Assembly: GCA_973895155.1 (NCBI GenBank)
Contig: OZ316892.1
Span: 9,838,283 to 9,902,282 of the forward strand
From: Marsupella aquatica
Taxonomy: Eukaryota > Plantae > Marchantiophyta
Length of the DNA: 64,000 bases
Reading direction: 5' to 3'
Positions 4,139 to 62,010 of the stretch are shown in pieces. Below the pieces are notes generated by a model. The model did not search any database and was not told the origin of the DNA. It worked only from the letters and a program-made list of their open reading frames with translations. Made by a program: the position numbers and the translations under genes. How positions within the stretch are numbered: the stretch's first letter is position 1; each line of letters starts with the position of its first letter.

Positions 4139-7100
4139 TTACAATATTTGTAAATAATTACAATGCCTTGAAAAACTATTGGAGTCTAATACTTTGGTAA
4201 AAGCATCCGCTGGATTAAGCTTTCCATCAATCTTGACAAGCTCAAATTCATTTTCCGATAATGCCTGTTGGATGAAATGATAGCGGACATCAATGTGCTT
4301 TACCCTGCCATCCAGCACCTGATTCTTGGCAGTGTAAATTGCACTTTGACTGTCACAATGAAGATACACAGAATCTTGTGATAAGCCCATCTCTTTGACA
4401 AGCTTTTTCAACCAAATGGTCTCTGATGCTGCTTCTGCTGCCGCTACATACTCGGCATCCATAGTAGACTTTGCAACACACTTTTGGAGAGTAGACTTCC
4501 AACTAATGCATCCACCAGCAAGTGTAAATACATATCCAGTTGTTGATCTCCTCTTATCCAGATCACCTGCGTAGTCTGCATCCACATAACCTTGAAGCAC
4601 TTTCATATTGTTTGAACTTGCATCAAACAATAAACCCTTCTTAGTGGAACCTCTGATGTAGCGCAAAATCCATTTCACTGCTTCCCAATGGACTTTTCCT
4701 GGATTTGCCATGTATCTGCTTACCTTGCTAACGGCATAAGCTATGTCTGGTCGGGTGCATACCATGAGATACATTAAACTGCCCACAGCACTTTCATAAG
4801 GAACTTTGGACATCAAACTTTTTTCTGTTGCATCCGATGGACAAAATGCTGCAGAAATATTGAAATGCCTTGCCAAAGGAACACTCACAGACTTAGCATC
4901 TGCCATGTTGAATTTTGAGAGCACCTTCTCTGCATATCTTTTTTGCGTCAGCCAAAGTTTGGCTTTGTTCACATCCCTGACAATCTCCATGCCTAGAATC
5001 CTCTTGGCTGGGCCCAAGTCCTTCATCTTAAACTCAGAACTGAGTTGGGCCTTAAGCTTATCAACTTCGCCCCTATCCTTTGCTGCAATGAGCATGTCAT
5101 CCACATAAAGTACAAGGATGACAAACTTAAAACCTATGTTGTTCACACGCCTGATGTAAACACATGGATCGTTCACGCTTCGCACAAATCCAAGCGATTT
5201 CAAAAATTCATCAAAACGCTTGTTCCATTGCCTTGGGCTCTGCTTTAATCCATACAAGGATTTTAGCAATCTGCATACCAAATTTTCCTTGCCCTTTTGT
5301 ACAAAACCCTCTGGTTGCCTCATGTAAATCACCTCATCCAACGATCCATATAAGAATGCCGTGACAACATCCATTTGATCTAAAACTAGATCAAATAAAA
5401 CTACAAGAGCACATAGCAAACGTATTGTTGAATACTTTGCTACGGGTGAAAAAACCTCATTGTAGTCTATACCTTTCTGTTGAGTAAAACCCTTGGCTAC
5501 CAACCGAGCCTTAAATATCTTCTCAGCATCCTCCGTGGGTCCATCTTTCTTTCTATACACCCACTTGTTGTCAACAGCCTGCTTGTCACTAGGTAGACTT
5601 GTGAGTTCCCAAGTCTTGTTATCATGAAATGATTTCATTTCCATGCGCATCGCCGCCTGCCATTGTTGCTTCTCCATAGAAGCTAGGACCTCTCGAAATG
5701 AGGATGGATCTCCATCTTCTGTCACCAATGCATCAATAGATTCTTCATCCAAATCCACTTGATCAGAAGGAAGCCAAGTTCCATACCTTTCTCGGGCTTG
5801 ACGTTTGCGAGTTCCTCTTTGCACTGAAGACTCTGGCTGATCTGATTGTAGTGTGCTTTGCCTTACAGTGGTGTCAACATATTCTTCATCTGACACATCC
5901 TTTCCCCTTAAATCCTCTAGAGGAGGAGATTGCACTTTGTTAGTAGTAGGGAATTGATCTATCTCCTCCTCCTTCAATGATTTGTCTTCATTGAAGGATA
6001 CATCCCGACTAACAAGTAACTTGCAATCAACTGGATCCCACAATCGATATCCTTTAACGTCACGCTGATAACCAAGAAAAATGCATTTCTAGGCTCTAGG
6101 ATCTAGCTTAGTCCTATTGTTGCTAGGATTATGTGCATGTGCTTCACAGCCAAAAATCTTAAGCTTTGAATAATCAGCAGGTCGATTGTGCCATAGCTCA
6201 AAGGGGGTTTTGTAAGTAATTGCCCGACTAGGAGAGAGATTTACGAGATAAGCAGCTATGTTGACAGCTTCCGCCCAAAAGATTTATGGCAATTTAGAGT
6301 GGCTCAACATGCTCCATGCTCGCTCCAACAATGTGCGGTTGAGTCGCTCAGCAATACCATTTTGCTCAAGAGTGTACACAGTTGTGAGATGGTGAGTAAT
6401 CCCTTATTTGCACAATATGCGTTGAACTCGCTAGAGGTGTATTCACCACCATTATCTGATCGTAGATATCTCACATTCTTTGCAGTCTGTGTCTCAACTT
6501 GAGCTATCCATTGTTTGAAGATGGAAAATACTTCAAACTTATGGGCAATGAAATAAATCCAAACAAACCTTAAGTAATCATCGATAAACGATACATAGTA
6601 TTGTTTGCCTGAATGTGAGGAAACCGGAGCAGGACCCCACACATCGGAATGAATATACTCAAGTACAACTTTAGAATGATGAATGGCAGTCGGAAATGGA
6701 GTTCTTATTTTCTTGCCGACAATGCAATGATCATAAAAACTCAACTTGCATGCTTGCAATCCTGGTAGGAGATGTCGCTTGTGTAGGATTTCCAAACTTT
6801 TTTCACTCATGTGACCAAGCCGAGCATGCCATAAATTGATTTTCTCCTCCTGAGATGTGACCAAATTGACTTCGGCAAGAAGTGTGGTGCCTTCCAAGAC
6901 ATAGATGTTTCTTTTCCTTGCCAATAAGAACTTCAGTTGATCCATGCGTGACTGTTAACACCCCATCAGTTGCACTCCATTGATAACCCTTCGCATCCAA
7001 GTAGCCAAGAGAAATCAAATTCTTACACATTTCTGGAATGTGTCTGACATTTGATAGAGTACAGTACTTGCCACCGGGTAGTTGAATCTTTACGGATCCA

Positions 7101-8170
7101 ATCCCTAAAACTTTGCAAGAATGATTATTTCCCATCAAAACAGATCCATTGATAGGAGTGTAGGATGAGAAAAGTTCACGCATATAGCACATGTGATATG
7201 AGCAAGCGGAATCCAAGATCCATTGACAATCCTCAATTTGGGAAGTGGTACACAATGCAAATCCTTCACTATCCTCTTCTCGAACAACTACTTGGGCTGA
7301 AGAACCGACAACTTCCTTGAATGTGTCTTTGACGCGACAATCCTTCTTCATGTGGCCCACTTTGTCACACTTCCAACACTTTATCTCACGAGTAGACTTG
7401 GATGGTGATTTGGATCGAGATCTAGATCTGGATCTAAACCTCCTCCTACCAAAAGATCGGTCGTGGAACCTTCCACGCTCCATGGGAAGTGGGTTAAACC
7501 TTTTGTTTTCATGAGATAGCTCCCTTGATTTGCCTCTTTCTACCAACAGTGCGGTTGATGATGAGGTTGAGGTAGGATGAGCTGAAGAAACCAGCTTAGA
7601 CTGCATGTCATCGGTCAACAACGCACTCACCACATCATTGTAGGATATAGTTGTCTTATCACGGAATAGAAGAACTCAAGACAAAGATTGGTACGAAGGT
7701 GGTAGTGAGCTCAAGAGTTGTAAGGCTTTCTTTTCTTCGCTCAAATGCTCCCCCAAATTCTCTAGGTCAACCACAAGATCATTGAACTGATCGATATGAT
7801 CTTGAATCTTGACTCCATCAGCCATTTTGAATTGCATGAGCTGCAGGCTTGCATACATTCGGTTTGACATCTCCTTCTTGTAGTACTTGTTGCGCAATGC
7901 TTGAAACAAGTCCGTCACCGTTTGTGTTGCTTTTTCCTCGAACTGCTTCTTCACATTGTTTTTCAGGTACATGCCAACAATACTTACCGCTTGATCCTGG
8001 AGATCATGCCAATCATCATCTTCCATCTCCTTGGGTTGAGATCTTAGTACCTTGCCTAGGCCCATCGCCCTAAGTGCATCTCTCACGTTACGTTCCCACA
8101 TTGTATAGTCCATCCGACCATCAAATTTTTCCACCTCAAACCTTTGACCTCCAATCCTAGTAGTCGCCAT
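4139..8170 (-). pseudogene. Copia gag-pol polyprotein with one nonsense codon and frameshifts
   Basis: Gag (EKFDG..YTMW; LLSSLPPSY), then TGA at 7676-7678 with the frame continuing. Zinc knuckle CWKCDKVGHMKKDC, protease WILDSACSYHM, GAG-pre-integrase LWHARLGHMS, integrase HSDVWGP / RSDNGGEY, RT KARLVAKGF / LYGLKQSPRQW / LYVDDML, RNase H DADYAGDLDKRRSTTGY. Frameshifts near 6910 and 6280-6400. Confidence 0.96.
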
Positions 8171-9328
8171 CGCTAGAATGCCAAATGTAGTGTGGAGTTG
8201 CCTTCCAACAAGAAATAAATGTCGAATGCTCAGATGCGGGGTGTGAAAATAAGGCCAAAAATGAAAGTTGATGAATTTTGAAACTGATCACTCCTGTGTG
8301 TAGCCCACAAGGTAACGCTCCAAATGCTGAAAACGGTTTGTCAAACGGACTCTCGAGTGCCGAGAATTTTTACTCTGACCGGAGGGGGGTAAAAAATGAA
8401 ATAAATACCCCTCGAGGGAATCTTTTATGCCAAAGATTCCACTAGTATGCGTTTCCAAAATTGAGCACACCAATGCTTGCCTAGCTTCCCCAAGTACACC
8501 TCTCCAAAAGTTGAAGTTGATTCAATTTTGTTTGCCGCTCGGAATCTTTGACCTTCGGTAAAAATTTAAGCTTCTGGAAAAAGAATCTTTTCGGGAAATT
8601 CCGTCCGCCCTTGTACAGCCCCTGTGGGGGAAATTCACAGGGGGCACTTCCCCCTGCCCGAGCCTTGTCGAGCCCTAAAAGGCCTCCTCGAAGTTTTCGA
8701 CCTCCTCGCGCGTCCGCGGAAGTCGCGACTACTCACGGCAGAAAGTACCCCTCGGCGGATTCACTCAAATTCCCGTCTCAGTTTTTGACGAAATCCAATT
8801 CTGATTTCAGATTCAGAAACTAGACTTCGAGGGCATCAAGATCGATATAAAGAACTTGCAAAACGGTGGAGTAATGAGGGAGAAACGATTCGTTGAAAGT
8901 GACTGATATTAAGTTATCCGCCATAGCCAAAATTTCGAGCTCAAAAAACGAGAATTGAAATTAAGATTGTTTCTCAACCGTTTGACGGAATTCAACGATG
9001 TTGGTATCGAAACGTCTAGAAAGACAAAGCGCTCTAGCGTATCTCAGTTTCAAGTCCCGATAGAACAATCAAAATGACTGATATGAGAAATTGACCTTAT
9101 CTCTTGCCCGATAACGTAAATTGAAAACCGTCACTTACAATTGTTTCCATTTCTGACCTCAGGCCTTCATTGCTTCACTGAAATGAGCCCCTGGTTGTGT
9201 GCTCCACACTTGTGAGAAGATTGAGTCCGATCTTCTTTCAATAGCTCCGCTTCGAAGAGGAAATCATCCGCTGTTCGCTTTGCTTGAAGCAAGTTCTATG
9301 GAGTTCCTAATCGACTGAAAAAATCTGA

Positions 9329-21105: not shown

Positions 21106-22044
21106 GACATTAAAAAAGACAACATAGGGGTTCAAAAACTACTGTATGACTTCCCTTTTACAAACTGAAACCTCAAGCTCTGCAACCTGCTTGAGATTTA
21201 AGGCTTGACAACTGTTTTGTTTCGAGGGAAACAGCCCATGAGCACTCCGTACAACTGTGGATTGGACTATACTTTACTTACGGCTATGAGCTATCACATA
21301 TGTTGTAAGTTGCTACATTGACATATGCACCACTTCTGTGTACACCGCCACATAAACTCTGGGTGTTTGTGGAAAATGCATAGATCACAAAGTTTAACAA
21401 ACTGCTCAGAATCAACCATCAAAACTTGCATGAACAGATTAGAAATATTAAATATTCCTCAAATAGCACATTCTCATTCTATGAAATGCTCAAATTTTCT
21501 GTAACTTTGGTCACTCTCGTAATGACTGACCTAAAGATAGCTGGAAATATTGAGAATCTTCTTTGTGTTAAACAAACGAGAGTCATCATCCATAATCTTC
21601 AGTCCTCCTCTATGGGTTTTGTGTGAGATTTCCCTTGTCCTCTGTCCTCATCTGCTGTGTGTCTCTCGTTTGTTTAAAACATTTGATTCAAAAGCTTTAA
21701 AATTACAGATGATGACTTTAGGCCATAAAAGAATGATCATAAATTTTTCACAAGATTGTGTAAATGTTTTCTTTTCACTTGCCTCTATAGTGACTGGTGG
21801 TAATGGCATATGACCAATTCTTTATGGCAAAAAGTTAAGGACTATGAATTTGGGAGTCTAAATTCTTGCATCCCCAATCATATGGCAAAACATTATGGAC
21901 CATGAATTTGGTAGTCTAAATTTTTGCATCCGTAACCCATAAGAAGGGAGTTAAGGGCAATAAAAATCTGAGCAATTTGAGCTTTTGGGATAGAGTTTAG
22001 ACCCATCAAATTCTGAGCTTTGAGACGCCCCAATGAGGCTGCCT

Positions 22045-22562
22045 TTCAGAGATGGGCAGGACTACCGAGGCAGGCCTTCGTTTCCCTTTTGTATCCCTTT
22101 CGTAACTTGAGGTGTCGTATTAGGGCAATTGTATACCCCAACCTACTCTGGGTTTTGAGTGAGATTTTACTCCTCCTCTGTCCTCAGCTGCTGTGAGTCG
22201 CTCGTTCGTTTTAACACCTCTGATTTGTACTCAATCAGAGGTCTTTCATCTTCAGAGATCGCAGAAGTACTGTGAGTCTCTCGTTCGTTTTAACACCTCT
22301 GATTTGTACTCAGTCAGAGGTCTTTCATCTTCAGAGATCGCAGAAGTACAGCAGCAGCAGCAGCAGCCTTTCGATTCCCTTTTGTAGCCCTTTCGTACCT
22401 TCGGGTAATTGTATAGTCCAACCTTCTGTGGGTTTTCAATGCGATTTTGCTACTCCTCTGCCCTCAGGTGCTGAGATTCTCTCGTTCATTTAGCACATCG
22501 GATTAGTAATCGATCAGGGGGTCTTTCGTCTTCAGATCGGCAGGAGTACCGCAGCAGCCGCA
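22045..22562 (+). repeat. Tandemly duplicated 5'-leader module upstream of the 22563 ORF, including a near-perfect 79-bp duplication
   Basis: 22191-22269 is repeated at 22270-22348. The larger unit TTCAGAGAT.GCAG.A.TAC...CCTTTTTGTA.CCCTTTCGTA...CCTCTG.CCTCAG recurs at ~22046 and ~22330, with its start again at ~22531. Confidence 0.85.
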
Positions 22563-22799
22563 ATGGCCGCGTTCTCGGGAACCACCGCATTGCAAGTGGT
22601 CATCAAGCGCACAGGCGGGCTGGTGTGGAAGAACTGGCCCATGAATCACACTCGTCGGGCGAATGCGAAGGCTCGGCACATTCGACTCGCGCAGGTGGAA
22701 GAAGTCCTGAGGGCCTGCTCACAACTTCCGCCTCCTTCCCCTTCTCCTACTTCTCCTTCTTCCCAGCTGGATGAAATGCAGCAGCAAAGCTCGCAGTGA
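22563..22799 (+). CDS. Small basic protein (78 aa), candidate mitochondrial large-subunit ribosomal protein mL60 (YmL31-like)
   Basis: Strong GCAATGGCC start context and GC-rich codons. MAAFSGT...GGLVWKNWPMNHTRRANAKARHIRLAQVEEVLRAC resembles, from memory, the fungal mL60 N-terminus (GGLLWKIPWRMS..QK.RQR.RLR.VD.V), followed by a low-complexity P/S/Q tail. Not verified by a search. Confidence 0.55.
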   Translation: MAAFSGTTALQVVIKRTGGLVWKNWPMNHTRRANAKARHIRLAQVEEVLRACSQLPPPSPSPTSPSSQLDEMQQQSSQ

Positions 22800-23116: not shown

Positions 23117-26100
23117 GACATCTTCATTAAGGGCGCTGGCGCTTCCTGTGCATCATAAACTTCTAGCAATGTTTCCAACCATAATCTCCAAAACGTGTAC
23201 TTTCTTAGATTTGAAAAGTTGGGGTTATAATCTTAGGTCCCACATATGTCCTAAGAATGGAGTTGTGAGTGTCCCTAGCGTAATGCCCAGCAAGCACCTA
23301 TAGCATAATCAATGCGGATGTCTGTGGGCTTATGACATTCTCATTAAGGGCGCAAGCGGTTGCTGTGCATCATTTGTCATCCCGCACTTGACATTTTGGT
23401 TGTACTTATATATCCTTAGGATTAGGAATGGAGTTGTAAATTGCTCGAAGCATAATGCCCAGAAAGCAGCTAGCATACTCAGTGCGGATGTCTCTGGTTT
23501 TCTAACGACATTCCCATTAAAACGCTAGCTGTTTCTGTGCATCTTTCGTCCAAAAGTTTACATCCGGCTCCTGACATTTTGGTTGTACTTATATATCTTT
23601 AGGATTCGGAATGGAGCTGTGAATTGTTCGAAGCATAATGCCCAGCAAGCAGCTAGCATACTCAATGTGGATGTCCGTGAGGTTCTAATGACATTCCCAT
23701 TAAGGGCGCTAGCTGTTGCTGCGCATCATTCGTCCAAGGGTTTACATCCGGCTCTTGACAATTTGGTTTTACTTATATATCCTTAGGATTAGGAATGGAG
23801 CTGTGAATTGTTCGAAGCGTAATGCCCAGCAAGCAGCTAGCATACTCAATGCGGATGTCTGTGCGGTTCGAATGGTATTTCCATCAAGGGCGCTAGCTGT
23901 TGCTGTGCATTGTTTGTCCAAAAATTCACATACGGTTCTGGACATTTTGATTGCTATGTATACTGACCGATTGTGATTGTTACAGTGGAAACGCTCGGTT
24001 TATAAAACACGCCCCACCTTGAAATGTCGAAGAGTACTTGTGAATTGGTCAGTAGCAGGTCTCCCAGCAAGCAGCCAGCACTCAATTTGGATGCCTTTGG
24101 TTGCCAATGTTGTGACGTCGCTGTTTTTGGGCTCGAGTGCTTGCTGTGCATCGTACTTTAAACATTTTATTGACCGTGTATCAGCCTTCAGTACCCTTTC
24201 TATAACCTAAGAACGTCGAGTGAGCAGAGCCTGCTGGAAGCCAGTCCCTTGGAACTTATGTCACTTCTCTGGAAATGAACTGGTTGACCAGGCCCAGCTC
24301 ATGTCCTTGCAGAACTGAATTCTGCTCCGGGACGTCTGCTCCCAAGCAACTAAAGCTGCTCTTGACATTCAGGAAGCCTGGGCGAGCAAAATGAGGAGAA
24401 TTGGTCCGGACAGCATCTGGGTAGGATAAACATCCTGCGCAGAATCCCGGCTTTGTATCAAAGGTCGACATAATACCTGGTGAAAAGGCTAGCAAAGATA
24501 ACATGCACGTACCATCGTCAGAATTTGCAATCATTCGCATGCTTGAGTGGGAATCGACTTTGTGTCTGTTATGTTTCCTAAGGAAGCAACAATTACCTGG
24601 TTTGCAGAGACCCGTGCATGAAGTATCATCGTCTGGAGAACATGTAGATTTCATGTGAAGCATATTTGCATAGTGAAGAATGATCTAGTCTTGGATACAA
24701 TGAATGAGCGGGTAAACTTAAATACCCCGGCCGAGGCAAGAAAAGTGAAAGAAACTAGACCCGTGATTATGGGAAGGCCGAAGCACCAGACTAATGTACA
24801 CAGCATCTAACAGTGTCCTTGTTAGGTAGAAACCTTGGTAGAAACCTTGATACTCGCTAACCAACTCTAACAGTCAAATAGTCCAAGATCTAATTATAAA
24901 CGACACAATCATAAAGTGGACAGTAACGCTTATAGTCCGTTGAAGAGAGAGCTGCACGTTGGCACAAAGAAGCGAAGATTTCTCCACTTGCACAACGGAA
25001 GGCGACATTTGCTCTCCATTCTTGGCGAACTCATCAGCAGGTATCATCAGAATCCCGTGCCTTCTCAGAATTCGCAGAAGAGGGGTTTGCCGAGTAATTT
25101 CTTCAGTATGTCAGCAACCTGATCAAGCAATGGAAGAAAGCGAAGATCAACTGTGCTCTTCAGAACGTGTTCCAAGATGAAGTGCTCCCAAACCTCCACG
25201 TGCCAGCACCTAACAAAGGAGCAAGGTAGGAATGTGAACACCACCATAGGTGCGGCATTGGGAATTCGATAAGGCAGTTCGATACGAGGTCGATATTGTC
25301 GGTAGATGCCAGGAACACAACAGGGTCAATGACTATACTCAGATGATCAAAAATTGATTCAACAATATTTTAAGAAGAGCTTTCCTAATAAGCCATGACT
25401 GTACCTCGACTAACATCCGGGCAAGGAGTGAATGAAAGGATTTGATATAAAATTTGGGGCGCCAAAAGTTCTTGTTCATCATCTTTAACACGTATGTTTA
25501 CATTTCTCCCGTCTGAAGCGTTTTGCTAGACTGAAAGATGTGAGTCTTCATCATTTCTTTTTGCACGTGAAAGGTTTGTATTCATAAGCTAGATTCCCAC
25601 CCCTTGTCAGCTGCAGAAAAGAGGGATCGTGCATTACACAAAGCACATTGCCCACCAAGTAGGTACCATGATTATACTCAATGTGGATGTTGTTGGGTTT
25701 TCATGTTATGACATGTCCATTGTTGTGCATCATACTTCTAACACTTGCCTTGAAAACCAAAAGCAGGCCCATCCAACAGAGGATAGACGTCGCCATCGAA
25801 CAGAGGATAGACGTCCTGCTTTGGAGCATACATTTCTATGCAGTGCAGTCGTCACAAGAGGACATGCATTTCTATGTAGGGCAGCCACAAGGGGACAATA
25901 CCCACTGATCCCACAGGACCCAGACCAGGAGGGAGAGAGTATTAAACCAGAACCCAAAGTGGACAACCAGGGCTGAGTAGATAATCAATATTCCCACCCC
26001 TACACCCCACCCACACACACATACCCTCCACACCCCTTATGTGTGGAGCGAGTATTGAACCTGGGCCAGTTGGTTTACTTCGAACAAAGCCGGTTGGTTT

Positions 26101-29100
26101 AATTCGAACATTTAGTAAACTTAGCTTGAGATTTTTTTAGCTACCTAGGCCCTCAAATTGTTTGATTTATGACCTTAGGCCCTTGTCAGCGCAAATGGAG
26201 ACGGATACAGATCGACACCGTGCGGAATTTAAGTCCCGATCTTACAGATCGACATGCAACTCACTTAATTTTACGTATCCAAACCATCGATGGAATCAGA
26301 CAACTCACAGACTGACAATTTCATGGAAGGGGGAAGAGTCGGGAAGAAAACTCAAGGCCATAAATTAAACAAGTCTCCTGAAACTAACTTTTCCTACGTC
26401 TTGTCTGTAAATGTAGTTGGATTCAGAGTAGCTTCGGGCACCCATTCTCAGCGTTTTCGACATAAAGGGACAATTGTGCTCGTCAGATAGGGAACCCATC
26501 ACAACCTTTAGCGTAGAAAAGAGTAGGTGTGAGTTGTAAGAAGCATGCTGCCCAGAAAGCAGCTAACATACTCAAAGTGGCTGTTTTTGGGGTTCCCATA
26601 TTTTGACATCTCCGTTAAGGGCGTTAGCGTTTGCTGTGTATCATAATTGAAATGATTCATATGTAAACTGCTCGTGAAATTGTTTACGAATCTTCAGTGG
26701 AAACGATTTGTTCGATCATAAACTTAGGCCTCTCAAATTGAAAGAGCAGAATCACTTAAAGGGTTTGTGAATTACTCAAAATGTACGAAACATATTTGCC
26801 GAGCCCCGCGGTTGCCACAGTTGATTTGGAAGCTGCCCTATGGATTGCTTAAATTATGACGTTCCCGGAGTTAAGTCGCTAGTTGTTGTTACGCCTGAAT
26901 CCTGGGCCTGAATCTCGTTGACAAGCCTGTTATGATAATTTAAGAGGAGCATCCCAAACGAGATCCCAGATGATTCCTAACCCTTTAATCAAGTTCACGG
27001 TACTTACCGAGAGAGTCGAACTACAAATCGAAGATTGAAGCATAATTTTGCCCAGCAAGCACCTAGAATAGTCTAATGTGGACGTCGTTGAGTTCTGATA
27101 TTTACCTGGACATCTTTATTAAGGGCGCAAGCGGTTGCTGTGTATCACATCTGAGACAAAAAGTCATTCCGTTCTTGTACCTAAGATATAAAATTGTCTC
27201 GTCTGTTGTAATGGACAAATACATATGCAGGCGACAGAAGCTAAATCAAGATTATTACGTACTCTTGAACAAAAAAAAGCAGTTGTTGACCAAAACGTAC
27301 ATTAATCATATCCTTGGTCTTCACATAGTCACTGCTGTAGTAGTTCATTAAGATGCATAAACGCAGTTTGATTATCCTGAGGTATTCTGTTCCTCTGATA
27401 GTCTTAAGGCTAGGTAAGAAAAGATTTGAAGTTGTAAACTCTTGTACCGCAACTGACACAGGTGAAGTTCTAATCCGCTAGAAAAGTAGTGGTCGGAAAC
27501 AGAAAGGCAAGTACCGCAGTGAATTTTAGGAAGCATATTGCCCAGCAAGCAGCTAGCATACTGAATACGGATGCCTTCGATGGTGATCAATATGCTGACA
27601 TTGCCATTATATCATACATCCAGCAACTCATAGCTACTCTTCAAATGTTATATCAACGCATATTTTGTTTCAGTGGTCCAGGAGGTGTTCGGTTTTTTTC
27701 GTTAGGCCACCCATATAATTAAGGCTAGGAAATAGCAGAATGACATGGCCATTGAGGGCGCTAGCACTTGCTGTGCATCATACATCAAACAATTCATAGC
27801 TACTCTTGAAATGTTAGATCAATATAGGACATGAATGGTTAATTTGTTTCATTGGCCCAGGTCGGAGTTGTTCGGTTCATATCATTAATTAGGCCACCCA
27901 CATCAGGCTAGCTAGGAAAGAGCAGTTACAACGTTTCCAATAGCATATTGCCCAGCAAGCAGCTAGCATACTCAATGTGGATGCCGTTCACTAAATGGCA
28001 TCGCCATTAAGGGCGCTAGCTCTTGCTGTGCATTATACATCGAAAAAGGCATAGCCACAGTTGAGTGGTTTTATCAATTCTGAGAATGTTTTGAGTCAAA
28101 AGTGTTTTGTTCATATCCTTACTAGGCCACCCACAAGAGTAGGAAAGAGGAGTTTTCAATTCTACCAAGAATATTGCCCAGCAAGCAGCTAGCATACTCA
28201 ATGTGGATGCCTTTGGTTCCGAATGTGATGGCATCTCCATTAAGGGCGCTAGCGCTTGCTGTGCATCATACTTTACACAACTCAATAACCATCAGTCGTT
28301 GAATTACAGAATGAAAAACTAAAATCAAAGTGGTGGAAACCTAACCAGAGATTGAGTCGAAGTATGAATTGAACGAAGCATCTTGCCCAGCAAGCAGCTA
28401 GCACACTCAATGCTGACGTCGTTGAGTTCGGATAATTAGACATTTCCATTAAGGGCGCTAGTGCTTGCGGTGCATTATACCTGAGACAATTCATTTAGTT
28501 CTTGGACCTAAGACTTAAGACTCCCTGGTCTGTTGTGACTGATATGCTCTGATACATTAGACTGATATTGCATGCGACAGATGCATAATCAAATTAATTT
28601 GTTACGTATTCTTGATCAAAACAAATTGTTGACCCAAACCTAGCGAGAGATAGAGCTCAAGTGCAAATTACATGGAGCATATTGCCGAGCAAACAGCTAG
28701 CATACTCAATGTAGATGTTGCTGAGTTCCAATATCTAGGCGTGTTTATTAATGGAACTAGCGCATGCTGTGCATCGATCATACTTCATACAATTCATATC
28801 CTTCTTTCTAAATTTTTGACCTAGCCAGAACTGTGTAGTTTTTTGTACCAGTAGAAACAGGAGTGCAACGATATACTGTCTGAGACTCAGGAGTGACTTT
28901 CATTTTCAGATCAAGAACAGCAAATGAATATATTTACTCTGGATAAAATCAAAGCGTTGACCCAAACATAACCAGAGATTGATTCTGTCTACAAATCGAA
29001 AGAAGCATGTTGCCCAGCAAGCAGCTAGCATACTCAATGTGGATGTTGTAATTAATCATATGTAGATTATTTCCATTAAGGGCGCTAGCGCTTGCTGTGC

Positions 29101-32100
29101 ATCATGCCTCAGACAGTTCAAAAACCACGGTTGAATTACAGAAAGAAAACACGGAACTTAATCCCAGCTTGCAACCTAGACAATGATGCATAGTTTTGCT
29201 AATACAGTGAAAGTAAGGACTACCTAGGACACCCTCAAGAGTACAAAAGTCTGGTTGTGCATTGCGAGAAGTATACTGCCCAGCGGATTTCTCTCACGAC
29301 CAATTTTAGGACATCCCCATCAAGGGCGCTAGCTCTTCCTGTGCATCATACCTCAGATAATTCGTAAACCAGCTTGCAGCCTTGATTCTGAAAACATTCA
29401 AGGATACCCACTTAAAACAAGCACTTTAATTTGTGAACGGAGTCACAATTAATGTGTCCTACACAGACTCAGGTCCAAGACATGAGAGTAGAAAAGTGTG
29501 GTTGTGAGTTCTGTGAAGCACACTACCCAGCGAGCATACTCAAATAATGTGACTGTCATTAATTGCAGATTTCTTGAAATCTCCATTGAGGGCGCTATAT
29601 ATCTCTTGCTGTGCGAGCATACTATCGATCAGACAATTTATACACCATAAACCAGCCTTGATTCCAAAAAACAAGATTATGAACTAATACCTGTACTTTT
29701 GTTAAGACAGCGAAAAGGTGTTCTACATTTATTTGGGCCCCAAGCTTCAGAGCAGAAAAGAGTGATTGTAATTTATGAGAAATTAACATGCTGCCCAGCA
29801 AGCAGCTAGCATACTCAGTGTGGATATTATCGATGTTCTCGATATCTCCATTAAGGGCGCTAGCTATTGCTGTGCATCATGCCCCAGACTATTAATAAAA
29901 CCACTCTTTAAGTAAGCATTCATTTTACCCCCCAAATGTTTACCAGCTTATGACATGAGCTCTTTGTTGATGTAAAAGACAATGTGTAATACACTTCGTT
30001 AACGTAAAAAATAGTTTTGAATTGTGAGTAGCATATTGCCCAGGAAGTAGTTAGCATACTCAACGTGGATGTCTGTTAATTACTACCTTCATGACATTTC
30101 TATTAAGGGCGCTTACTAGCGCTTGCTGTGCATTATACTTCAGACAATTCAATCGTGAAAGCTTTCCTTGAAATGTTAGTCCCTTCACATGAGTGTTGTT
30201 GTACATGAGAAGGTGTAGTAAATGTACTCAGCCCCGCCCGAGAATAAAGGAAAGGTTGTGTATTGCTAGAAGCATACTACCCAGCAAGCAGCTAGCATAC
30301 TCAATGTGGATGTCTTTGATTACCAATATGATGACATGGCCATTAAGGGCTCTTGCTGTGTATCATACTCCATACATCTCACAATCCTCTTTAAAAAATT
30401 GTACTTTCAACCTTAGAAATAGTCAGAATGGGGAATGCATATATTCTTAATTATCGACTTAATGTGTCACCAGATAATGAGAATAAAAATATTAAACTTA
30501 TAGAGTTATTTGAATTGTACAAAGAAGATTGCTTAGCAAGCAGCTAGCAGACTCAATGTGGATGCCAACTAAGATGACATCCCCATAAAGATTGCTAGCA
30601 CTTGCTAAGCATTACACCTCCAATTTTGAATCAGTTTTGAATTATAAACTCATCATTAACAATTATAGATATTTGATGGCATCAAATTTATATATCACCC
30701 ATATATACTCAATTCTTCTCAAAATTTAGAGACATACTTCACAAATGAGAGTAGGTCGGAATTGTAGAAAGCACTATTGCCTAGCAAGCAGGTAGCATAC
30801 TCAATGCGAGACTCAATGTAGATGTCTACTTCATTGACATCCCAGAAAGGTCGCTACCTCTTGCTATGCATCAAGCTTCACAGTTCTCATGTACTCCTCT
30901 AAAATGCACAAGTTGAGAGTTGAAATGGAACATGTTGCCTAGCAAGCAGCTAGCATACTCAATGTGAATGTCTTTGTGCTCCTTAGTTCTTCCTGTAATC
31001 TGCCCTAGCTAGTCAGATCCATAAAATTGACATTCCCATCAAGGTTGCTAGCTTTTGCTATGCACCGAGCTTCATGTAGCCCATCAACTTCGTATTAGAA
31101 TTTTAACATGCATGTACGTAGTTACTATGAACAGTGAATTTTCTAAGAAATCAGAGTAACATATTGGATCCTAAACGTTAGCAAGCCGAGGGAAGGAAGA
31201 CAAAATCATTGGACCATGCAAGAATAGGAGGCCCCACACCAGTATTATTTACCTATTCCATGGACTTCCATCAAATCAGTGTTAATATATCCTGTCATAC
31301 TATACTACACTCAGATATTTGAACATTCCTTAGGTAGTTAGTATGAGAATCTTATCCACATTTCAACATACACTTTATCGTTAGTCTTGTTCGATCCCGT
31401 TAATCATGTGGAGCTGATTAAATTATCACTTGTTTGTACAGTCTGTATTTTTGCAGCAGCCAAGAAAAATAATACTGCGTGTATTATGCTGATGAGTCGC
31501 CTGAAGCTCATTTCCTAGAAACGAGCCAGCAGAATCATTTGGGACGTTTGTGGGCAATGGCAATCAAACAAGCAGCCGAAGTGCGCTTGAAATCGCCATT
31601 AATTAATGCTACTAGCTCGTGCTAAGAATCAAGCTAGTATTTCAGTCGCCTCTTCCACAGTGAAATAGAATGAATGTTAGATCGCAGTCTGATGCAGATG
31701 TGATCAGCGATTCGGCCCGCCAAGAACGAATTCGAGTCTAAAACGGGGAAAGAGTTCTGACTGCTTCATATATGTGACAACAAAATGGACGTGCTTGATG
31801 AAGAAGTGTTAGTGATCAAGGTGGGTATTCCTGCCACCAGCTGTAAACGTGACACCACTTTTACGATCACTGGCTCTTCCCATATACAATACCTAGTAAT
31901 TGCTCTATCGTGGTCACTTGAAATTGTTATCACAATTGGAAGTAATTCTAAACTGGAAAACTGAAAATCTCCACAACACGACGTGATCTTGTACGTAGCA
32001 GCTAGCTGCTCCCGGAAGAACATAACCAATCATGACATAGAAGTGAGTTGTAGTTTGTTACCTAGCAAGCAGCTAGCATATATACTCAATGCGATGCGAT

Positions 32101-34590
32101 GGTCTCAATCTGGACTTTACCGAATTAAGGCCGCTAGCGCTTGCTATGCACCAATTAAGCTTTGCGCACCTACCCTCAATATCTAAGCAATGTCACATTG
32201 GCAACGGAAACTATGTTTAGGGAAATAAATGACAATCAATGATATTCAGCTCTTGGATCATTCTCAGTTGGCGGGTATCTGGAGCTGGACTATGTCCTCG
32301 TAACAAGTTCCATAGGAATGCTGCTAATACCATATGAGGATCCTGCCTGACAAAGATCATGTACGTCACAGTAGGGTCCTATAGATCAGGAGCGACGGAA
32401 TATGGATTATTCGACAAATGCCTACCTGAGACCCTCTGAGGATCCTGGATCTACTTGATATTTCGGCCCTTGGAATCTCCCCTAGTTGCTGCAGAGGGAA
32501 CCTATTTCGCTCAGATCCCAGTATACTTCAACAACTATCGCCCTAAAGAATCCTTTGCTAGGTTTTTCCGTTCCGATGGAGGCCCCAGGGAATGCCTAGA
32601 TTCGACCTCTCTGTACTATCAAAACCGAAGACAGACAACGCTTCGTCATTATGACCTCATATCAGCTTAAGTTTTGAGTGGGAAGACGTTATTTTCCAGT
32701 TTCACAAAATTTTACGTATTTAACACACGTATCAACATTTCCCTCATCGCTTAAAATGAGTGAGGGAGATATATAATCAACTGTGAAGACCCCTGTCTGA
32801 CCAATGTTTTTGACAATGTCACCCGAGCAGTTCCCCTCTTGTTCATCTCCTATCAGCCACAGGAAGTACGACGTACAGTACGTGCTATGTACTCATCCAA
32901 ACACTAACCAGCGAGATGATACTAACACGGTGTTCCGGCTTCTGTCATTTCTCGAATAATCTTGTACTAATGGCCAGTCCTACAGAAGCTGCCCATAGAA
33001 TCAGTAGGATTAAGAATGCAGCTGGGAATTGTTCGAAGCATATTGCCCAGCAAGCAGCTAGCATACTCAATGCGGACGTCTGGGTTTATAATGACATTCT
33101 CATTAAGGGCGCTAGCTGTTGCTGTGCATCATTCGTCCAAAAATTCACATGATTCCACTCCTGACATTTCGATTTTTCTTATGTACACCTAGAATTAGGA
33201 ATCGAGCTGTAACTTGTTCAGAGCATACTCATTCTACTCATTGAAACACTAGACCTGCAGTGAGATGATACTAACACATTGCGCCGACTACTGTCATTTC
33301 TCGAATATAATCTCGTAACTTGGCCAGTCCTATAGAAGCTGCCCATAGAATCGGTAGGATTAAGAATGCAGCTGGGAATTGTTCGAAGCATATTGCCCAG
33401 CAAGCAGCTAGCATACTCAATGCGGACGTCTGGGTTTGTAATGACATTCTCATTAAGGGCGCTAGCTGTTGCTGTGCATCATTCGTTCAAAAATTCACAT
33501 GATCCCGCTCCTGACATTTCGATTTTTCTTCTATATACCTAGGATTAGGAATGGAGCTGTGAATTCTTCAAAGCGTACTGATTGTACTTATTGAAACACT
33601 AGACCTGCAGTGAGATGTTACCAACACATTGCGCCGACTACAGTCATTTCTCGAATATAATCTCGTAACTTGGCCAGTCCTATAGAAGCTGCGCATAGAA
33701 TCGGTAGGATTAAGAATGCAGCTGGGAACTGTTCGAAGCATATTGCCCAGCAAGCAGCTAGCATACTCAATGCGGACGTCTGAGTTTGTAATGACATTCT
33801 CATTAAGGGCGCTAGCTGTTGCTGTGCATCATTCTTCCAAAAATTCACATGATCCCGCTAGCTCCTGACATTTCGATTTTTCTTCTAGATAGCCTAGGAT
33901 TAGGAATGGAGCTGTGAGTTGTTCAAAGCGTACTCATTGTACTTATTGAAACACTAGACCTGCAGTGAGATGATACTAACACATTACGCCCTCTACAGTC
34001 ATTTCTCGAATAACCTCGTAATTTGGCCAGTTCTATAGAAGCTGTCCATAGAATGGGTAGGATTAATTAAAAAATGCAGCTGGGAATTGTTCGAAGCATA
34101 TTGCCCAGCAAGCAGCTAGCATACTCAATGCGGACGTCTGGGTTTGTAATGACATTCTCATTAAGGGAGCTAGCTGTTGCTGTGCATCATTCATCCAAAA
34201 ATTCACATGACACCACTCCTGACATTCCGATTTTACTTCTATATATATATAGCCTAGGATTAGGAATCGAGCGGTGAATAAACATACTCATTGTACTCAT
34301 TCAAACACTTGACCTGCAGTGAGAGCATACTAATATATTGCGCCGACTACAGTCCGTTTTTGAATATTCTTGTAATTTGACCAGTCCTATAGAAGCTGTC
34401 TATAGAATATATCCGTAGGATTAGCTAGGAATGGAACTGGGAATTATTCGAAGCATATTGCCCAGCAAGCAGCTAGCATACTCAATGCATGTGTCTATGG
34501 ACTTCTAATGACATTCTCATTAAGGGCGCTAGCTGTTGCTGTGCATCATTCCTCCAAAAATTTACATGATCGATCCCGGTCTGGACACTT
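23117..34590. ncRNA. Array of ~30 pre-miRNA-like hairpins (putative polycistronic MIRNA cluster)
   Basis: Unit consensus GAAGCATATTGCCCAGCAAGCAGCTAGCATACTCAATGYGGATGTC-[variable loop]-GACATYYCCATTAAGGGCGCTAGCKSTTGCTGTGCATCATWC; the two arms are reverse-complementary. Cores at about 23284, 23456, 23639, 23823, 24062, 25649, 26549, 27049, 27539, 27949, 28175, 28384, 28683, 29011, 29277, 29524, 29792, 30037, 30278, 30530, 30778, 30936, 32059, 33044, 33394, 33744, 34102 and 34459. Remnants at 23117, 26797, 27742 and 31565. Confidence 0.75.
23385..23955. repeat. ~184-bp tandem sub-array of hairpin units
   Basis: Cores at 23456, 23639 and 23823 (spacing 183-184) with conserved linker TGACATTTTGGTTGTACTTATATATCCTTAGGATTAGGAATGGAG. 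Confidence 0.93.
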
Positions 34591-34770
34591 CGATTTTACT
34601 TACATATCCTAAGGTTAGGATTAGGAATGGAGCTGTGAATTGTTCAAAGCAGACACATTCTACTCATTCAAACACTAGACCAGTGAGTGATATATACTAA
34701 TAGAGTGCGCCGACGTACTGCAGTCAACTCTCGAATAATCTTGTAATTTGGCCAGTGCCTTAGAATCTGT
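32895..34770. repeat. ~350-bp tandem sub-array (5 hairpin cores, each alternating with a second module)
   Basis: Cores at 33044, 33394, 33744, 34102 and 34459 (spacing 350, 350, 358, 357) with high identity across whole units. Confidence 0.95.
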
Positions 34771-35559
34771 CTTTCCCGACAGGTCACACCAGCAAGTTAA
34801 TTTAAATGTAAGAGAGATGGATGGTAGCTGATATGGTCTGACGGAGCATTGTAATTCAGAGCACCATATATATCTCCTCAACTACGTACATTCAATCTGC
34901 ATTTCCTCTCGACAATTCGACAATATAGTGATCTAACATGTCATTGGTCAGAGTATACTACTAACTGTGTTCACTGGCATCGATCCCAGACTTTCACTCG
35001 ATCCGGAATTTAGTCACGTTAGTGCGACATTGCAACTTCTAGAAGAGCACATGGCCGGTGAGCCCCAAGCCATACTTCCTTCACTCAAGGCTCTACAATA
35101 GAAAATCATTCTCAAGACTATTCAGTACGTGTATTCTCCCACGAAACGTACATGAGCACAACTCTGAGGTACCCATGCTTACTGTCAAGAAGGGTGTCTA
35201 TGGACCGGAATTGAAGTAGAGCTTTGCGTTTGCATTACATTACCTCCATCGAGAGTCCATCACCATACCTGCAGCAGAAATGTTGCCATCTGAGCTCCAG
35301 CCGCCACGAGAAACAGTCTCTCCGTGGCCAAGAACTCCCATAGGGCCTCTCTCCCAACCAAAGACTCGAATGGCGCTTCAATTCCACATCAGAGACTTTA
35401 AGAGCACATAAAACATGAACACTGTACCATTCCGAAACTAAAAGTGAACTTCGAGAGTCCTCTTTTTCCTTTCCGGAGACCCATGTAGAGTGAGACGCAC
35501 GTACGAAGACAGGTTAACTGGATCCGAATCGTGGTTAGGATGGAAAGAGAGACGTAAAG

Positions 35560-35900
35560 AGAGGAGCGTGCGGTGTTTCGTTTGTGTGGCGACTCGAAAT
35601 CCGAAGGCCGATGGGAGTACGGGACGTGAGTGAAAGGGAATGGGATGACGAATGGGAGTCCGGGCGATCCTGTTTTATAGTCGCCGTAGGCGGCCCGGCG
35701 CTGGGGTCCGTAGGACCGACGTTGACGGCGTGCCGTCCGGAGAAGTCTGTGCAATTGCTTGACTCTGCCCTACTGGGGAACGCGCCCCCGCGCGCCATCT
35801 GTCAGTTTAGAGGCCCTACATCTCAGGGTCGCGCCTTTTGCAGTGGGCACCCTCCAAAACAACAAAGGGCCGCTATGAAGTGGGAATTTTGTTTCTCTTC
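35560..35900 (-). promoter_or_regulatory. Candidate Pol II core promoter firing leftward toward the hairpin array
   Basis: Minus-strand CTATAAAA at 35680-35673 and Inr-like TCA about 33 nt downstream (~35646). A CT-rich tract follows and a GC-rich island lies upstream; no long ORF follows. Confidence 0.55.
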
Positions 35901-56799: not shown

Positions 56800-57740
56800 A
56801 CTTGCACTTGATGACATCTTTTTACTTCACACTATCTTTCACATATTTACCCATTTGGTACCACATCAGCTTTTTACTCGACAACATCTTTTATTTATGG
56901 CAACTTTCACTTAACGACTTCTTTGGCAAAACAACTTCTTTTTTGTTAACCACAATTTTTTACTTGATGACAACAGTTTACTTGACAACATGTTCGGAAA
57001 AGTGACTCCTTTTTCCTTAACAACATTTTTTTTACTTAACAACATTTATTTACTTGACAACGTCTTTCAAATAACTACATATTTGGCGAAACAACTTCAT
57101 TGTGCTTAACTACATCATTTTACTTCATGGCATCTTTCACAAAACGACATCGTGGGTGACACAACATCTTTTGTGCACGCACAGGTATTAAGCTATTTTG
57201 TATTTAACAACATTGTTATACTTAATGAAACCTTTCGCATAATGCTTTACAACATCATCGGCAACACGACCTCTATTTCTTCCACAACCTCTTGGTTGAC
57301 ACGGCATCTTTTGTTCTCAACTACTTCTTGGCCGACACGACATCTTTTGTTGTCACTGACATCTTGCCTGACACAACATCTTTCTTCTCAACAACCTCTT
57401 TGCCGACACGACACCTTTTTTTCTCAACGACTTCTTGGCCGACACAACATCTTTTGTTGTCACTGACATCTTGGCTGACACAACATCTTTCTTCTCAACG
57501 ACCTCTTGGCCGACACGACATCTTTTGTTCTCATCGGCATCTTGGCCGCCCGCTTGGCTGACATGACATCTTTTGTTCTCAATGACATCTTGGGCGACAC
57601 GGTATCTTTCTTCTCAACGACCTCTTGGCCTACACGACATATTTCTTCTCAACAACCTCTTGGCCGACACTACCTCTTTTGTTCTCAACGACATCTTGGT
57701 TGTCATGACATCTTTTGTGCACAGGTATTGAGCTAGTGTC
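56800..57740. repeat. Degenerate ~36-bp (18-bp based) minisatellite
   Basis: CCGACACGACATCTTTTGTTCTCAACGACCTCTTGG units at 57290-57715 with more decayed copies to the left. The block is bounded by two copies of TTTTGTGCAC(GCAC)AGGTATTRAGCTA (~57169, ~57713). Confidence 0.85.
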
Positions 57741-58832
57741 ACCTGCTTATCAAACGATTTACACGACAAATACGTATTTACTCCTACTAAAATCATTTGT
57801 TATCGTATGACGGGAACATGGAGGGACGCTATTAGGATTCTATTGCATGTAGGATGAGTATGTTTTTTTCCGCTCCCGGAAATGTAATTTTTGATCAAGT
57901 CTACTGACTAGCCGCTCTGCTTTTGATCAAGTCCCATGGACTACACCACACACACTCCTACTGGTCGTTGGTGGAGTGCTGTCACCACCCCTCCTACTCA
58001 CATGGTTGACCAAACCGTGCAAGGATTCCTTAGACGCTTCTTGGGGAAAGAACACAATCGTGAACCAGAAAAGGTAACACCACAACAAAACTTGAGGAAT
58101 CAAACCAAATCCATATCTTTTGGCAAAACGTCGTAACACATTGCAAGGACAACCCGGCCTCCTGCCGTCTGCCCAACTACTGCCTCCCTGGGGCAAGTGC
58201 TACACTTCTACCTCACTACTCTGGCTTGATTCCCTCTTCTGGCTATGAGCTAACTTCCCTAAGCAAACACTAGATTGAGTTCCCCCCCTCACTACTCCGG
58301 GGCTCTCCCCCTAAATACTGAAAAAAACACACCAAAGCACCCCTCACGGGATCACCATGGTGGCGGCCACCCTAGCGGCGCCGCTAAAACCTTGCATAAA
58401 CTTTCACACAAGAAAATCCCTAATCCTAAACCATGTGGCACACACATGCTCCTAAAACCCTAATCTAACAATGGGACCGACGGTGCCTTCGACGGCGCCC
58501 CAACATCGCTTCGTAAATCACGAAAAATGCAAGGGACCTCACAATTGCCGAAACTTGGTGCCACTCTGATTTCACCTCTGAGCTCACCCCTGGGTAGCCC
58601 TACTCCCCCTGATCATGAATCACAAAACCACTCCCGAAACGGACGTCAAACGACCAAGTTATGGTCGTTTCAGTATCACTTACTTACCAACTTCGTCGGC
58701 CCCTAACTTACTCATCCTGGCTCCGTTTGAGGAGCGCCGCCTCTTGTTGGAATCAGCTCCGTGAGCTCTTTCCAACAAGCCCGTGAGTGCACCTTTCCAA
58801 AAAATTTCACAATCCAGAGGTCGTATGATAAG

Positions 58833-59164
58833 TGTTAAGGATTGCTCTTAGTCTTGTGACTCATAGGTTACGGCACTTAGGCTAACCACAGTTAGGATCT
58901 TAGCTGAGGTTAGGTTAGTCGTGTGTGACCTTGTATATACCAGGGCTAGTGTAAGCCGCTGGTGTGTGGTGCTTACTCATTGTAACAGAGCAACAGGAGG
59001 AAGAGAGAGGGCATGTGTGTTTGTCTACTCTTGAAGTAAAGCTTGAGTGTTCGTGTGGACGTAGCCTTGGAGAAGAGGTGAACCACGTAGAGATTGTGTC
59101 GACTACGTGTGCATGGAATGAGTCATGGTTGTATGGTCGTTGCGAATGACGTCTTAGTTCAACA
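58833..59164 (+). mobile_element. Solo LTR (332 bp) of a copia-type retrotransposon
   Basis: TGTT...AACA termini with a perfect 5-bp TSD ATAAG (58828-58832, 59165-59169). Internal TATATA, and a GTGGACGTAG...GAACCACGTA motif also present in the LTRs of the element at 3621-9668. Confidence 0.88.
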
Positions 59165-59183
59165 ATAAGTCCGTACGGCTACC

Positions 59184-61774: not shown

Positions 61775-62010
61775 TCGATACCCTCCTGGTCTTGGGTACC
61801 CTCCTTCGCCCTCGGTACCCTGCTGCGCCCGGTACCCTCCTGTCCCGGGTACCCTGCTGCTCCCGGTACCCTCCTGGTCTTGGGTACCCTCCTTCGCCCT
61901 CGGTACCCTGCTTCTCTCGGTACCCTGCTTCCCCCGGTACCCTGCTTCCCCCGGATACCCTCCTGGTCTTGGTACCCTCCTGGTCTTGGGTACCCCCTTG
62001 GTACCCTCTC
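61775..62010. repeat. GGTACCC-anchored short tandem repeat, ~14 units mostly 17-19 bp
   Basis: Series GGTACCCTCCTGGTCTTG / GGTACCCTCCTTCGCCCTC / GGTACCCTGCTTCCCCC. Confidence 0.92.

Follow-up and report, generated by a model that had tools for sequence, protein, structure and literature searches.

A tandem array of about 29 hairpins in the liverwort Marsupella aquatica as a candidate expanded microRNA cluster

The hairpin array found in a 64,000-nucleotide stretch of the genome of the leafy liverwort Marsupella aquatica (contig OZ316892.1; hereafter, the window) is, on balance, probably a greatly expanded tandem MIRNA cluster, with a minus-strand primary RNA predicted to originate at a TATA site at 35.68 kb and a 3p guide that DCL1 would cut. 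This reading is supported by arm-specific conservation, two-sided pair changes in the stem, low copy number, a promoter-like site and likeness to Marchantia loci.

Layout of the array and conservation of its arms

Scanning the entire window by local alignment identified 28 left-arm and 28 right-arm matches, all on the plus strand and all in 23117-34549, while three shuffled windows used as a specificity control gave 0-1 matches each. The scan corroborates the co-oriented hairpin array described in an earlier note on this DNA, and the count that the note gave for a 25-mer was reproduced exactly (11 copies on plus, 0 on minus). Its inventory of the array stands, with the addition of a diverged but well-folded hairpin that it had overlooked (unit D, Table 1), so that the 28 defined units and unit D make a total of about 29 hairpins. 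Both arms are largely intact in about 22 units, and deletions or insertions have damaged roughly one unit in every three or four. Gaps between units are mostly below 0.5 kb and the longest is about 1.5 kb. The hairpins are 80-125 nt in size, or about 130-145 nt including the outer helix, and the stem measures about 45 bp rather than the 100-170 nt initially proposed. Each 350-bp repeat of U24-U28 also contains a truncated half-unit.

Table 1. Features of the hairpin array and its surroundings (positions in the window)
Feature	Positions	Strand	Remarks
Conserved 78-aa gene, homolog of Marchantia Mp5g05950	22563..22799	+	Convergent neighbour, outside array
Whole hairpin array	23117..34549	- (strand inferred)	About 29 units plus remnants
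Right-arm-only remnant, array end	23117..23156	-	Arm scan
U01-U04, 184-bp repeat	23284-23373, 23456-23546, 23639-23729, 23823-23913	-	
U05, degenerate	24061-24155	-	Arm scan, folding
U06, degenerate	25649-25735	-	Arm scan, folding
Dispersed high-copy repeat inserted in array	25745..26065	.	No hairpin unit; internal control, read depth
U07-U09, damaged	26549-26644, 27049-27148, 27539-27781	-	Right arm duplicated in 27539-27781
U10-U14, old	27949-28036, 28175-28269, 28384-28478, 28683-28781, 29011-29105	-	Loops and spacers diverged
U15, U16, left arm deleted	29278-29349, 29526-29620	-	
U17, U18	29792-29880, 30037-30136	-	
U19, right arm partly deleted	30278-30366	-	
U20-U22	30530-30615, 30778-30874, 30936-31067	-	C-G to U-A pair change in common with U23
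Unit D, strongly diverged hairpin	31496..31640	-	Minus-only fold
U23, partly damaged	32059..32153	-	Arm scan, folding
U24-U28, five young units, 350-bp repeat	33044-33132, 33394-33482, 33744-33832, 34102-34190, 34459-34549	-	
Conserved 3p arm of U24, candidate 22-nt guide UUGAGUAUGCUAGCUGCUUGCU	33049..33070	-	Register uncertain by about 4 nt
5p partner arm of U24, predicted star strand	33101..33121	-	1 nt shorter than 3p arm within duplex
Predicted 1.1-kb 5' leader of primary transcript	34550..35650	-	Splice-donor-like sites, inferred by reading sequence
TATA box (CTATAAAA)	35673..35680	-	GC-rich upstream, pyrimidine-rich leader, faces array

Among 14 intact units, mean identity is 0.95 in the guide arm, 0.78 in the partner, about 0.72 in the lower stems and 0.55 in the flanks, with 0.49 for random sequence; the conserved region comprises roughly 30 nt of the left arm together with both stems and has a sharp peak on one arm. 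The candidate guide is exact in 12 of the 28 units and has two or fewer mismatches in 20. In 23 of the 24 units aligned, and in unit D as well, two letters face three, and from this asymmetric duplex the 3p product is predicted to be probably 22 nt long.

In the alignment of units 86.7% of cells are paired, and 10 of 36 pairs are changed on both sides compared with 5.2 in shuffles (2/500), a number which does not exceed the 5-10 two-sided changes given by slid controls. The pairing structure for this comparison was derived from the same unit sequences, and arm-to-arm DNA conversion could also produce changes of this kind. RNAalifold recovered the lower stem alone from the gapped alignment. Consensus-like units have 2 mismatches and a 1-nt bulge on the minus strand, in line with the structural criteria for MIRNA loci; Axtell and Meyers 2018 reportedly call for a single hairpin below 300 nt with a duplex containing no more than 5 mismatches and up to 3 nt in asymmetric bulges.

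Resemblance to the MIR11888 cluster of Marchantia

The tandem loci mpo-b3.0r1-1334, -1335 (mpo-MIR11888a) and -1336 of Marchantia polymorpha, at scaffold_3:892447-893382, are read-validated MIRNA loci, of which 1334 falls in dcl1a and all three fall in dcl1b (PMC11799827). Their RNAs match the conserved arm of the array at 17, 15 and 15 of 21 positions, respectively, in one register, with 18 of 21 matching in U22; the chance of a 17/21 match is about 0.004 over 319 miRNAs. Like the array units, the Marchantia loci are arranged in tandem on the same strand, 400-500 bp apart, and locus 1334 is 87 nt long, as are U11-U14 in that register (78-125 nt over 21 units), whereas the Marchantia cluster has 3 seen members against about 29 hairpins here. 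The array family and the MIR11888 cluster likely share an ancestor, with mature sequences differing at 4-6 positions. Rfam 15 gave 0 matches at gathering score, and two matches with E > 1 were far below threshold. The initial view of the array as an unrecognised family is weakened by this likely Marchantia relative.

On the conserved arm the Marchantia RNAs read in the plus sense, as the complement of the arm on the favoured minus strand; a minus 3p guide is at odds with this sense, except if the two liverworts use different arms. The array and the Marchantia cluster are not syntenic: the orthologs of three flanking genes are on scaffolds 27, 102 and 103 and the cluster is on scaffold 3; these three orthologs are mutually unlinked in Marchantia as well. 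Predicted targets of the Marchantia look-alikes were weak, with expectation 4-5 among the matches listed, and for four candidate guides no target sites (score <= 7) appeared in the window outside the array.

Further searches returned no tRNA, no Pfam family at E < 0.01 among the array ORFs scanned and no matches to the arm motifs in paper full text or in the supplements of PMC4368373, PMC5569507, PMC10841014 and PMC4788410 (the last without its file 1), and none of the Pellia novel miRNAs in one published table matched the array arms by eye. Metagenome contigs contained 0 exact 21-mers; 17-mer matches in metagenomes (31 loci) and viral 16-mer matches (4 loci) were rejected as chance, since all 32 that were inspected of these 35 loci had no partner arm (scores of 12-22 versus 94).

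Probable transcribed strand, promoter-like site and competing explanations

Folding of each unit on both strands, a check suggested in the earlier note, was carried out with 40 shuffles per unit and strand and bore out the hairpins, giving z <= -3 in 16 of 28 units on minus and in 14 on plus, the others being damaged. Ensemble energy was lower on minus in 14 of 17 unit groups, and strong array folds were on minus in 11 of 14 cases. Unit D, in which 7 of 22 guide positions are altered as read from the alignment, folds at -51.4 kcal/mol (z -4.6) on minus, with 9 G-U pairs, and at -37.0 kcal/mol (z -0.7) on plus. The conserved G-U pairs of minus are A-C mismatches on plus; private substitutions revealed no strand bias (G-U 16 on minus, 19 on plus). 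Transcription of the array from the minus strand is likely, and of the two products previously put forward, a plus 5p and a minus 3p, the latter is favoured by the better minus folds and by unit D, which folds on minus only.

Among the 72 TATAWAW sites of the window, only the TATA box at 35673-35680 has a promoter-like context (upstream GC 0.66, downstream pyrimidine 0.67), with a predicted transcription start near 35650 directed into the array on minus. At the other end, the nearest left neighbour is the 78-aa gene and not SAMDC, which had been named as the left flank. The genes neighbouring the array are most similar to those of Calypogeia fissa, in one copy of which SAMDC, the 78-aa gene and UPS have consecutive accessions, with no annotated gene in the interval that corresponds to the array, between CAM6105048 and CAM6105049.

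It is unlikely that the array is instead a plus-strand MIRNA cluster, produced by read-through of the 78-aa gene or driven by local promoters, with the left arm as a 5p guide in the Marchantia register (from 33047 in U24) and PPR mRNAs as possible targets. The major RNAs of Marchantia loci 1334, 1335, 1336 and MIR11867 have this sense and register in common, many Marchantia hairpins lie within UTRs (PMC9291395), and the plus strand retains the 14 folds mentioned above. Its folds are nevertheless the worse ones in most groups and absent in unit D, with mismatches replacing the G-U pairs, and the promoter-like site is oriented oppositely. Base composition speaks on both sides: on plus, T outnumbers A in the unit loops (165 vs 96) and the U01-U04 spacers are likewise rich in T, whereas the other spacers have the skew of intergenic DNA and the middle ones lack the T excess of three plus-strand genes. 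The complement of the plus 5p guide reads LSMLAAC in one frame, which we take to resemble the L motif of PLS-class PPR proteins, but unit translations gave no PPR signal in Pfam or PDB.

A minus-transcribed hairpin RNA that is diced imprecisely or by another Dicer (e.g. DCL1b, DCL4) into a mix of siRNAs appears quite improbable. Such dicing would suit the breadth of conservation, which exceeds one 21-mer, and the drop of the Marchantia relatives in dcl1b mutants; the short stems, the fixed mismatches and the sharp one-arm peak argue otherwise, as does the MIRNA class of the Marchantia loci, for which a sequenced star is required (PMC7111516).

Read depth bears on whether the array is a functionless tandem repeat, or derives from a MITE, with arms kept alike through DNA conversion and hairpin-assisted repair, which we regard as very improbable. 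In run X1 the inserted repeat reached a bin depth of 5755 over a baseline of 15-19, about 300-fold, and arm depth was 1762 compared with 1165-1898 simulated from the window alone; this low copy number contradicts the dispersed, high-copy MITE family raised earlier as an alternative. The array ends, made up of young tandem blocks (184 bp and 350 bp), the many damaged units and the extra unit copies seen outside the window are what a functionless repeat could show, yet one arm is kept far better than its partner, the fold of unit D is strand-specific and the units resemble validated MIRNA loci. Least probable of all is an undiced structured RNA, serving as a protein-binding scaffold or a miRNA decoy of repeated hairpins. 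On minus the conserved arm could pair with the major RNAs of Marchantia (duplex energies of -26 to -30 kcal/mol), as a decoy site would, but it is buried in a stable stem, the anatomy and 87-nt span of the units fit pre-miRNA geometry and no Rfam family matched.

Proposed origin and place among microRNA clusters

For the expanded MIRNA cluster, we propose that RNA polymerase II would start at the TATA site and produce one roughly 12.5-kb minus-strand primary RNA; given the damaged units, the gaps of up to 1.5 kb and the inserted repeat, a single continuous transcript is not certain. DCL1 would then release one small RNA in many copies from the conserved 3p arm, and the guide from unit D would be a different one. 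The conserved lower stem and the free loop length would fit cutting from base to loop, a mode of processing which expects conservation of the lower stem, and the duplex, with 1 nt more on its 3p arm, would yield a 22-nt guide beginning with 5' U, a type that triggers secondary siRNAs. Hairpins would have been duplicated in tandem again and again together with their spacers to give the units, with selection keeping the 3p arm and its pairing as loops and spacers drifted, and higher copy number would raise the small-RNA dose.

More speculatively, and with considerable doubt, an ancient liverwort family, represented in Marchantia by three weakly expressed hairpins, may have been amplified about tenfold in a leafy liverwort into a single-promoter 12.5-kb polycistron whose opposite arm supplies a 22-nt trigger of secondary siRNAs, while unit D would already be evolving a new guide. 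This would be a bryophyte mega-cluster of the animal style, for which miR-430 and C19MC offer a comparison.

The surveyed plant MIRNA clusters of Arabidopsis, rice and poplar contain 2-8 hairpins, and the homologous rice cluster Osa-MIR395m-s,x consists of one-family stem-loops on one strand, derived by successive duplication and probably sharing one promoter (PMC2812943). The array is like the rice cluster in its same-family hairpins, single strand and short spacing, and differs in having about 29 hairpins over 11.5 kb against a maximum of 8 members (497 bp) in that survey, in its unrelated sequence and in its liverwort host. Asymmetric duplexes also give rise to the 22-nt phasiRNA triggers miR2118/miR482 and the miRFBX cluster (PMC5902766), to which the array is similar in its predicted 22-nt 5'-U guide, extra duplex nucleotide and clustered copies, a likeness of predicted length and duplex with none shown in sequence. 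As a candidate liverwort polycistronic MIR gene it may be likened to Mpo-MIR390/MIR11676, two unrelated hairpins in 2.9 kb and the sole Marchantia polycistron named in PMC9291395.

If the proposed reading is true, the array would be among the largest plant microRNA clusters, its roughly 29 hairpins lying far beyond the range of those surveyed. Its young, old, dead and diverged copies would form a natural series on what DCL1 needs and on how new guides originate. The link with MIR11888, if true, would define a miRNA family common to liverwort classes, whose function could be tested in Marchantia by a 1-kb deletion of the cluster.

Conservation and folding of the hairpin units

A local-alignment scan of the 64 kb found 28 left-arm and 28 right-arm matches, the left arm being the conserved one in plus-strand reading order, all in 23117-34549 (three shuffled windows gave 0-1 matches apiece), which bears out the single orientation proposed in an earlier note made from the sequence alone. 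The 25-mer singled out there occurs exactly in 11 copies on the plus strand and in 0 on the minus, and the roughly 28 units it claimed are defined here as U01-U28, with a 29th, unit D, added afterwards (see table). The array ends are young tandem blocks with periods of 184 bp and 350 bp, and loops and spacers in the middle have diverged. In a folding scan of 16-47 kb, 16 of 1550 window-strand folds cleared a threshold of MFEI 0.80 with 30 nested pairs, 14 of them inside the array; a tandem repeat at 22.2 kb accounts for the other 2. No tRNA was found by a tRNA search, and the scanned array ORFs had no Pfam match at E < 0.01.

Pairwise identity was averaged over 14 intact units, with damaged units and near-duplicates excluded. 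It is 0.95 in a 22-nt left-arm block, 0.78 in the partner arm (a value depressed by three units cut off register), 0.71-0.73 in the lower stems and 0.54-0.55 in the 60-nt flanks; random pairs give 0.49. The conserved 22-mer is exact in 12 of the 28 units and has at most 2 mismatches in 20. The conserved arm carries a 1-nt excess over its partner, and in 23 of 24 aligned units (U06, U09, U15 and U16 left out) two variable letters of the partner arm lie opposite three fixed letters. Across this alignment a 36-pair stem is 86.7% paired, and 10 pairs changed on both sides compared with 5.2 in shuffles (2/500); because slid controls yield 5-10 such changes, the same range as observed, and with a tested structure derived from the same unit sequences, this count is supportive of kept pairing but not decisive. 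The hairpin array is real and under selection and, both strands counted together, it is quite likely a giant tandem MIRNA cluster.

Features in the window and probably related Marchantia loci
Feature	Location	Strand	Remarks
PIF/Harbinger-type transposase fragments	682-1295	plus	
Ty1/copia retrotransposon	4139-8287	minus	gag-pol split over several frames
Repeated 5' region of 78-aa gene	21600-22560		
79-bp tandem repeat	22201-22330		folds on both strands
78-aa gene	22563-22799	plus	homolog of Mp5g05950; no Pfam family
Dispersed repeat within array	25745-26065		high-copy, about 300-fold depth
Unit D	31496-31640		diverged 29th hairpin
Second small hairpin in unit D loop	31555-31600		with short pieces resembling consensus arms
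Truncated half-unit in each 350-bp repeat	33215-34670		flank present, without full arm
CTATAAAA box	35680-35673	minus	1.1 kb before first hairpin
35/36-bp and 17/35-bp tandem repeats around two long ORFs	57250-62170	minus (ORFs)	459 and 149 aa, no Pfam match; possibly a mobile element
mpo-b3.0r1-1334	scaffold_3:892447-892533	minus	typed MIRNA, PMC11799827 supplements
mpo-b3.0r1-1335 (mpo-MIR11888a)	scaffold_3:892952-892972	minus	typed MIRNA, PMC11799827 supplements
mpo-b3.0r1-1336	scaffold_3:893362-893382	minus	typed MIRNA, PMC11799827 supplements

Probable relatives in Marchantia and the reading strand

Lists of differentially expressed loci, searched by motif, led to three adjacent MIRNA loci, here 1334, 1335 and 1336, in the supplements of a study of Marchantia DCL mutants (PMC11799827), whose main text does not mention them. 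The MIRNA class of the source annotation requires every criterion, a sequenced star included, in the portion of PMC7111516 consulted. According to the supplements, 1334 is reduced in dcl1a (log2 -3.8) and dcl1b (-3.9), and 1335 and 1336 in dcl1b (FDR 0.08 and 0.05), with counts that are low throughout (2-8). The RNAs listed for the three loci agree with the conserved arm, in its plus sense, at 17, 15 and 15 of 21 positions, ungapped and in one register. The 1334 RNA reaches 17-18 of 21 in 15 units and at most 15 outside the array; the chance of 17/21 against unit arms is 1.2e-5 per sequence and 0.004 over 319 miRNAs, and this match was reached in 0 of 60000 shuffles, while one 15/21 match by itself falls short of significance (0.31 over 319). 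Measured in that register, U11-U14 are as long as 1334, at 87 nt (4 of 21 units; all 21 span 78-125 nt), and mpo-MIR11867 likewise matches there, by eye, at 14-15 of 21. Comparison of flanking-gene orthologs revealed no synteny between the array and the Marchantia cluster. Judged by sequence resemblance, the array is probably homologous to these loci, so that the family described earlier as unrecognised likely has a Marchantia relative; it does lack an Rfam match at gathering score, two E > 1 matches falling far below it.

The array is quite likely read from the minus strand, on which the conserved arm is 3p and its partner 5p. Folding each unit on both strands, as the earlier note proposed, gave the lower energy on minus for 20 of 28, on plus for 7 and a tie for 1; with recent duplicates pooled, minus was lower in 14 of 17 groups, and the other three consist of damaged units. 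In unit D the arms have diverged strongly from the consensus; it retains on minus the 1-nt excess and a fold of -51.4 kcal/mol (z -4.6, 9 G-U pairs), compared with -37.0 (z -0.7) and no fold on plus. Of 72 TATAWAW sites, only the CTATAAAA box combines GC-rich DNA upstream with a run rich in pyrimidines downstream. Against the minus reading, private substitutions are unbiased by strand (16 vs 19), and loops (165 T, 96 A) and the U01-U04 spacers are T-rich on plus; the remaining spacers show the same excess of A as intergenic DNA. The main conflict comes from a less likely rival reading, a plus-strand MIRNA cluster with the conserved left arm as guide, which would gain if the listed Marchantia RNAs are guides. 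The Marchantia match itself leaves the strand unfixed, because any star strand will look like its conserved partner in reverse complement, and where the Marchantia RNAs differ from one another internally, the changes are of a type that preserves G-U pairs with the minus 3p core of the window in computed duplexes. The complement of the conserved arm reads LSMLAAC, which we take to resemble the L motif of PLS-PPR proteins; unit translations gave no support for a PPR link.

Copy number and neighbouring genes

The region is present in four sequencing runs, none of them listed as RNA, and depth was compared in one of them, X1, where the baseline is about 15-19, unit-bearing bins have 13-61 and the repeat inserted in the array reaches 5755. 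Such depth is no copy number, but the repeat exceeds the units about a hundredfold, so the units do not form a dispersed, high-copy family of the MITE type named earlier. Summed X1 depth on the conserved arm of one unit is 1762, where simulated unitigs built solely from the window sequence give 1165-1898. Some further units lie beyond the window: three X1 contigs (2125, 958 and 1264 nt) bear units and are absent from the simulated unitigs, and an about 94% identical version of 28485-28898 coexists with the exact one. X1 and two further runs, X2 and X4, contain part of 27900-29800 in a second form of about 94% identity, which implies further units outside the window or collapsed in assembly. 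In other copies of the inserted repeat a T run precedes the position of 25745, the pattern expected of a minus-strand retroposon with a poly(A) tail.

SAMDC (14.3-15.7 kb), previously taken for the left neighbour of the array, gives way to a 78-aa gene conserved in liverworts, mosses and streptophyte algae. The SAMDC protein is nearest that of Calypogeia fissa (85% identity, against about 57-63% for moss and Marchantia), which makes a leafy liverwort the likely host. In C. fissa the 78-aa gene shows microsynteny with SAMDC and ureide permease, and one copy of the three has consecutive accessions (CAM6105047-49), implying, from accession order only, no annotated protein gene in the interval matching the array; the second copy has one extra accession between the 78-aa gene and ureide permease.

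Known clusters and predicted processing

Since larger miR2118 clusters exist in grasses, we do not claim the array as the largest in plants. The part of bioRxiv 2020.04.25.061721 consulted holds no confirmation of these clusters. Those of Arabidopsis, rice and poplar covered in the accessible text of PMC2812943 have at most 8 members, whereas the array has about 29 units. The consulted sections of PMC9291395 name one two-hairpin polycistron in Marchantia, do not name the trio as one, and give 25% polycistronic miRNAs in Physcomitrium. The literature searched, with subscription papers outside its scope, held no description of the arm motifs, miR11888 or bryophyte tandem clusters; nor did the arm motifs match the text and supplement (without file 1) of PMC4788410 or the supplements of PMC4368373, PMC5569507 and PMC10841014.

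Most likely, Pol II would start near 35650 on the minus strand and run through the array toward the 78-aa gene, which is convergent with it. Each intact hairpin would then be cut base-to-loop, which follows a 15-17-nt lower-stem rule, and the predicted products are a 22-nt guide with 5' U from the 3p arm and a star of 21 nt from the 5p arm, in a register that may shift by about 4 nt. Such a cutting mode is described in the portion of PMC9864873 consulted, and phased siRNAs triggered by 22-nt miRNAs from asymmetric duplexes in that of PMC5902766. Outside the array, the window contains no target sites of the candidate guides. A candidate MIRNA by its hairpins alone, the array would operate in the manner of miR395-type homologous miRNA clusters.
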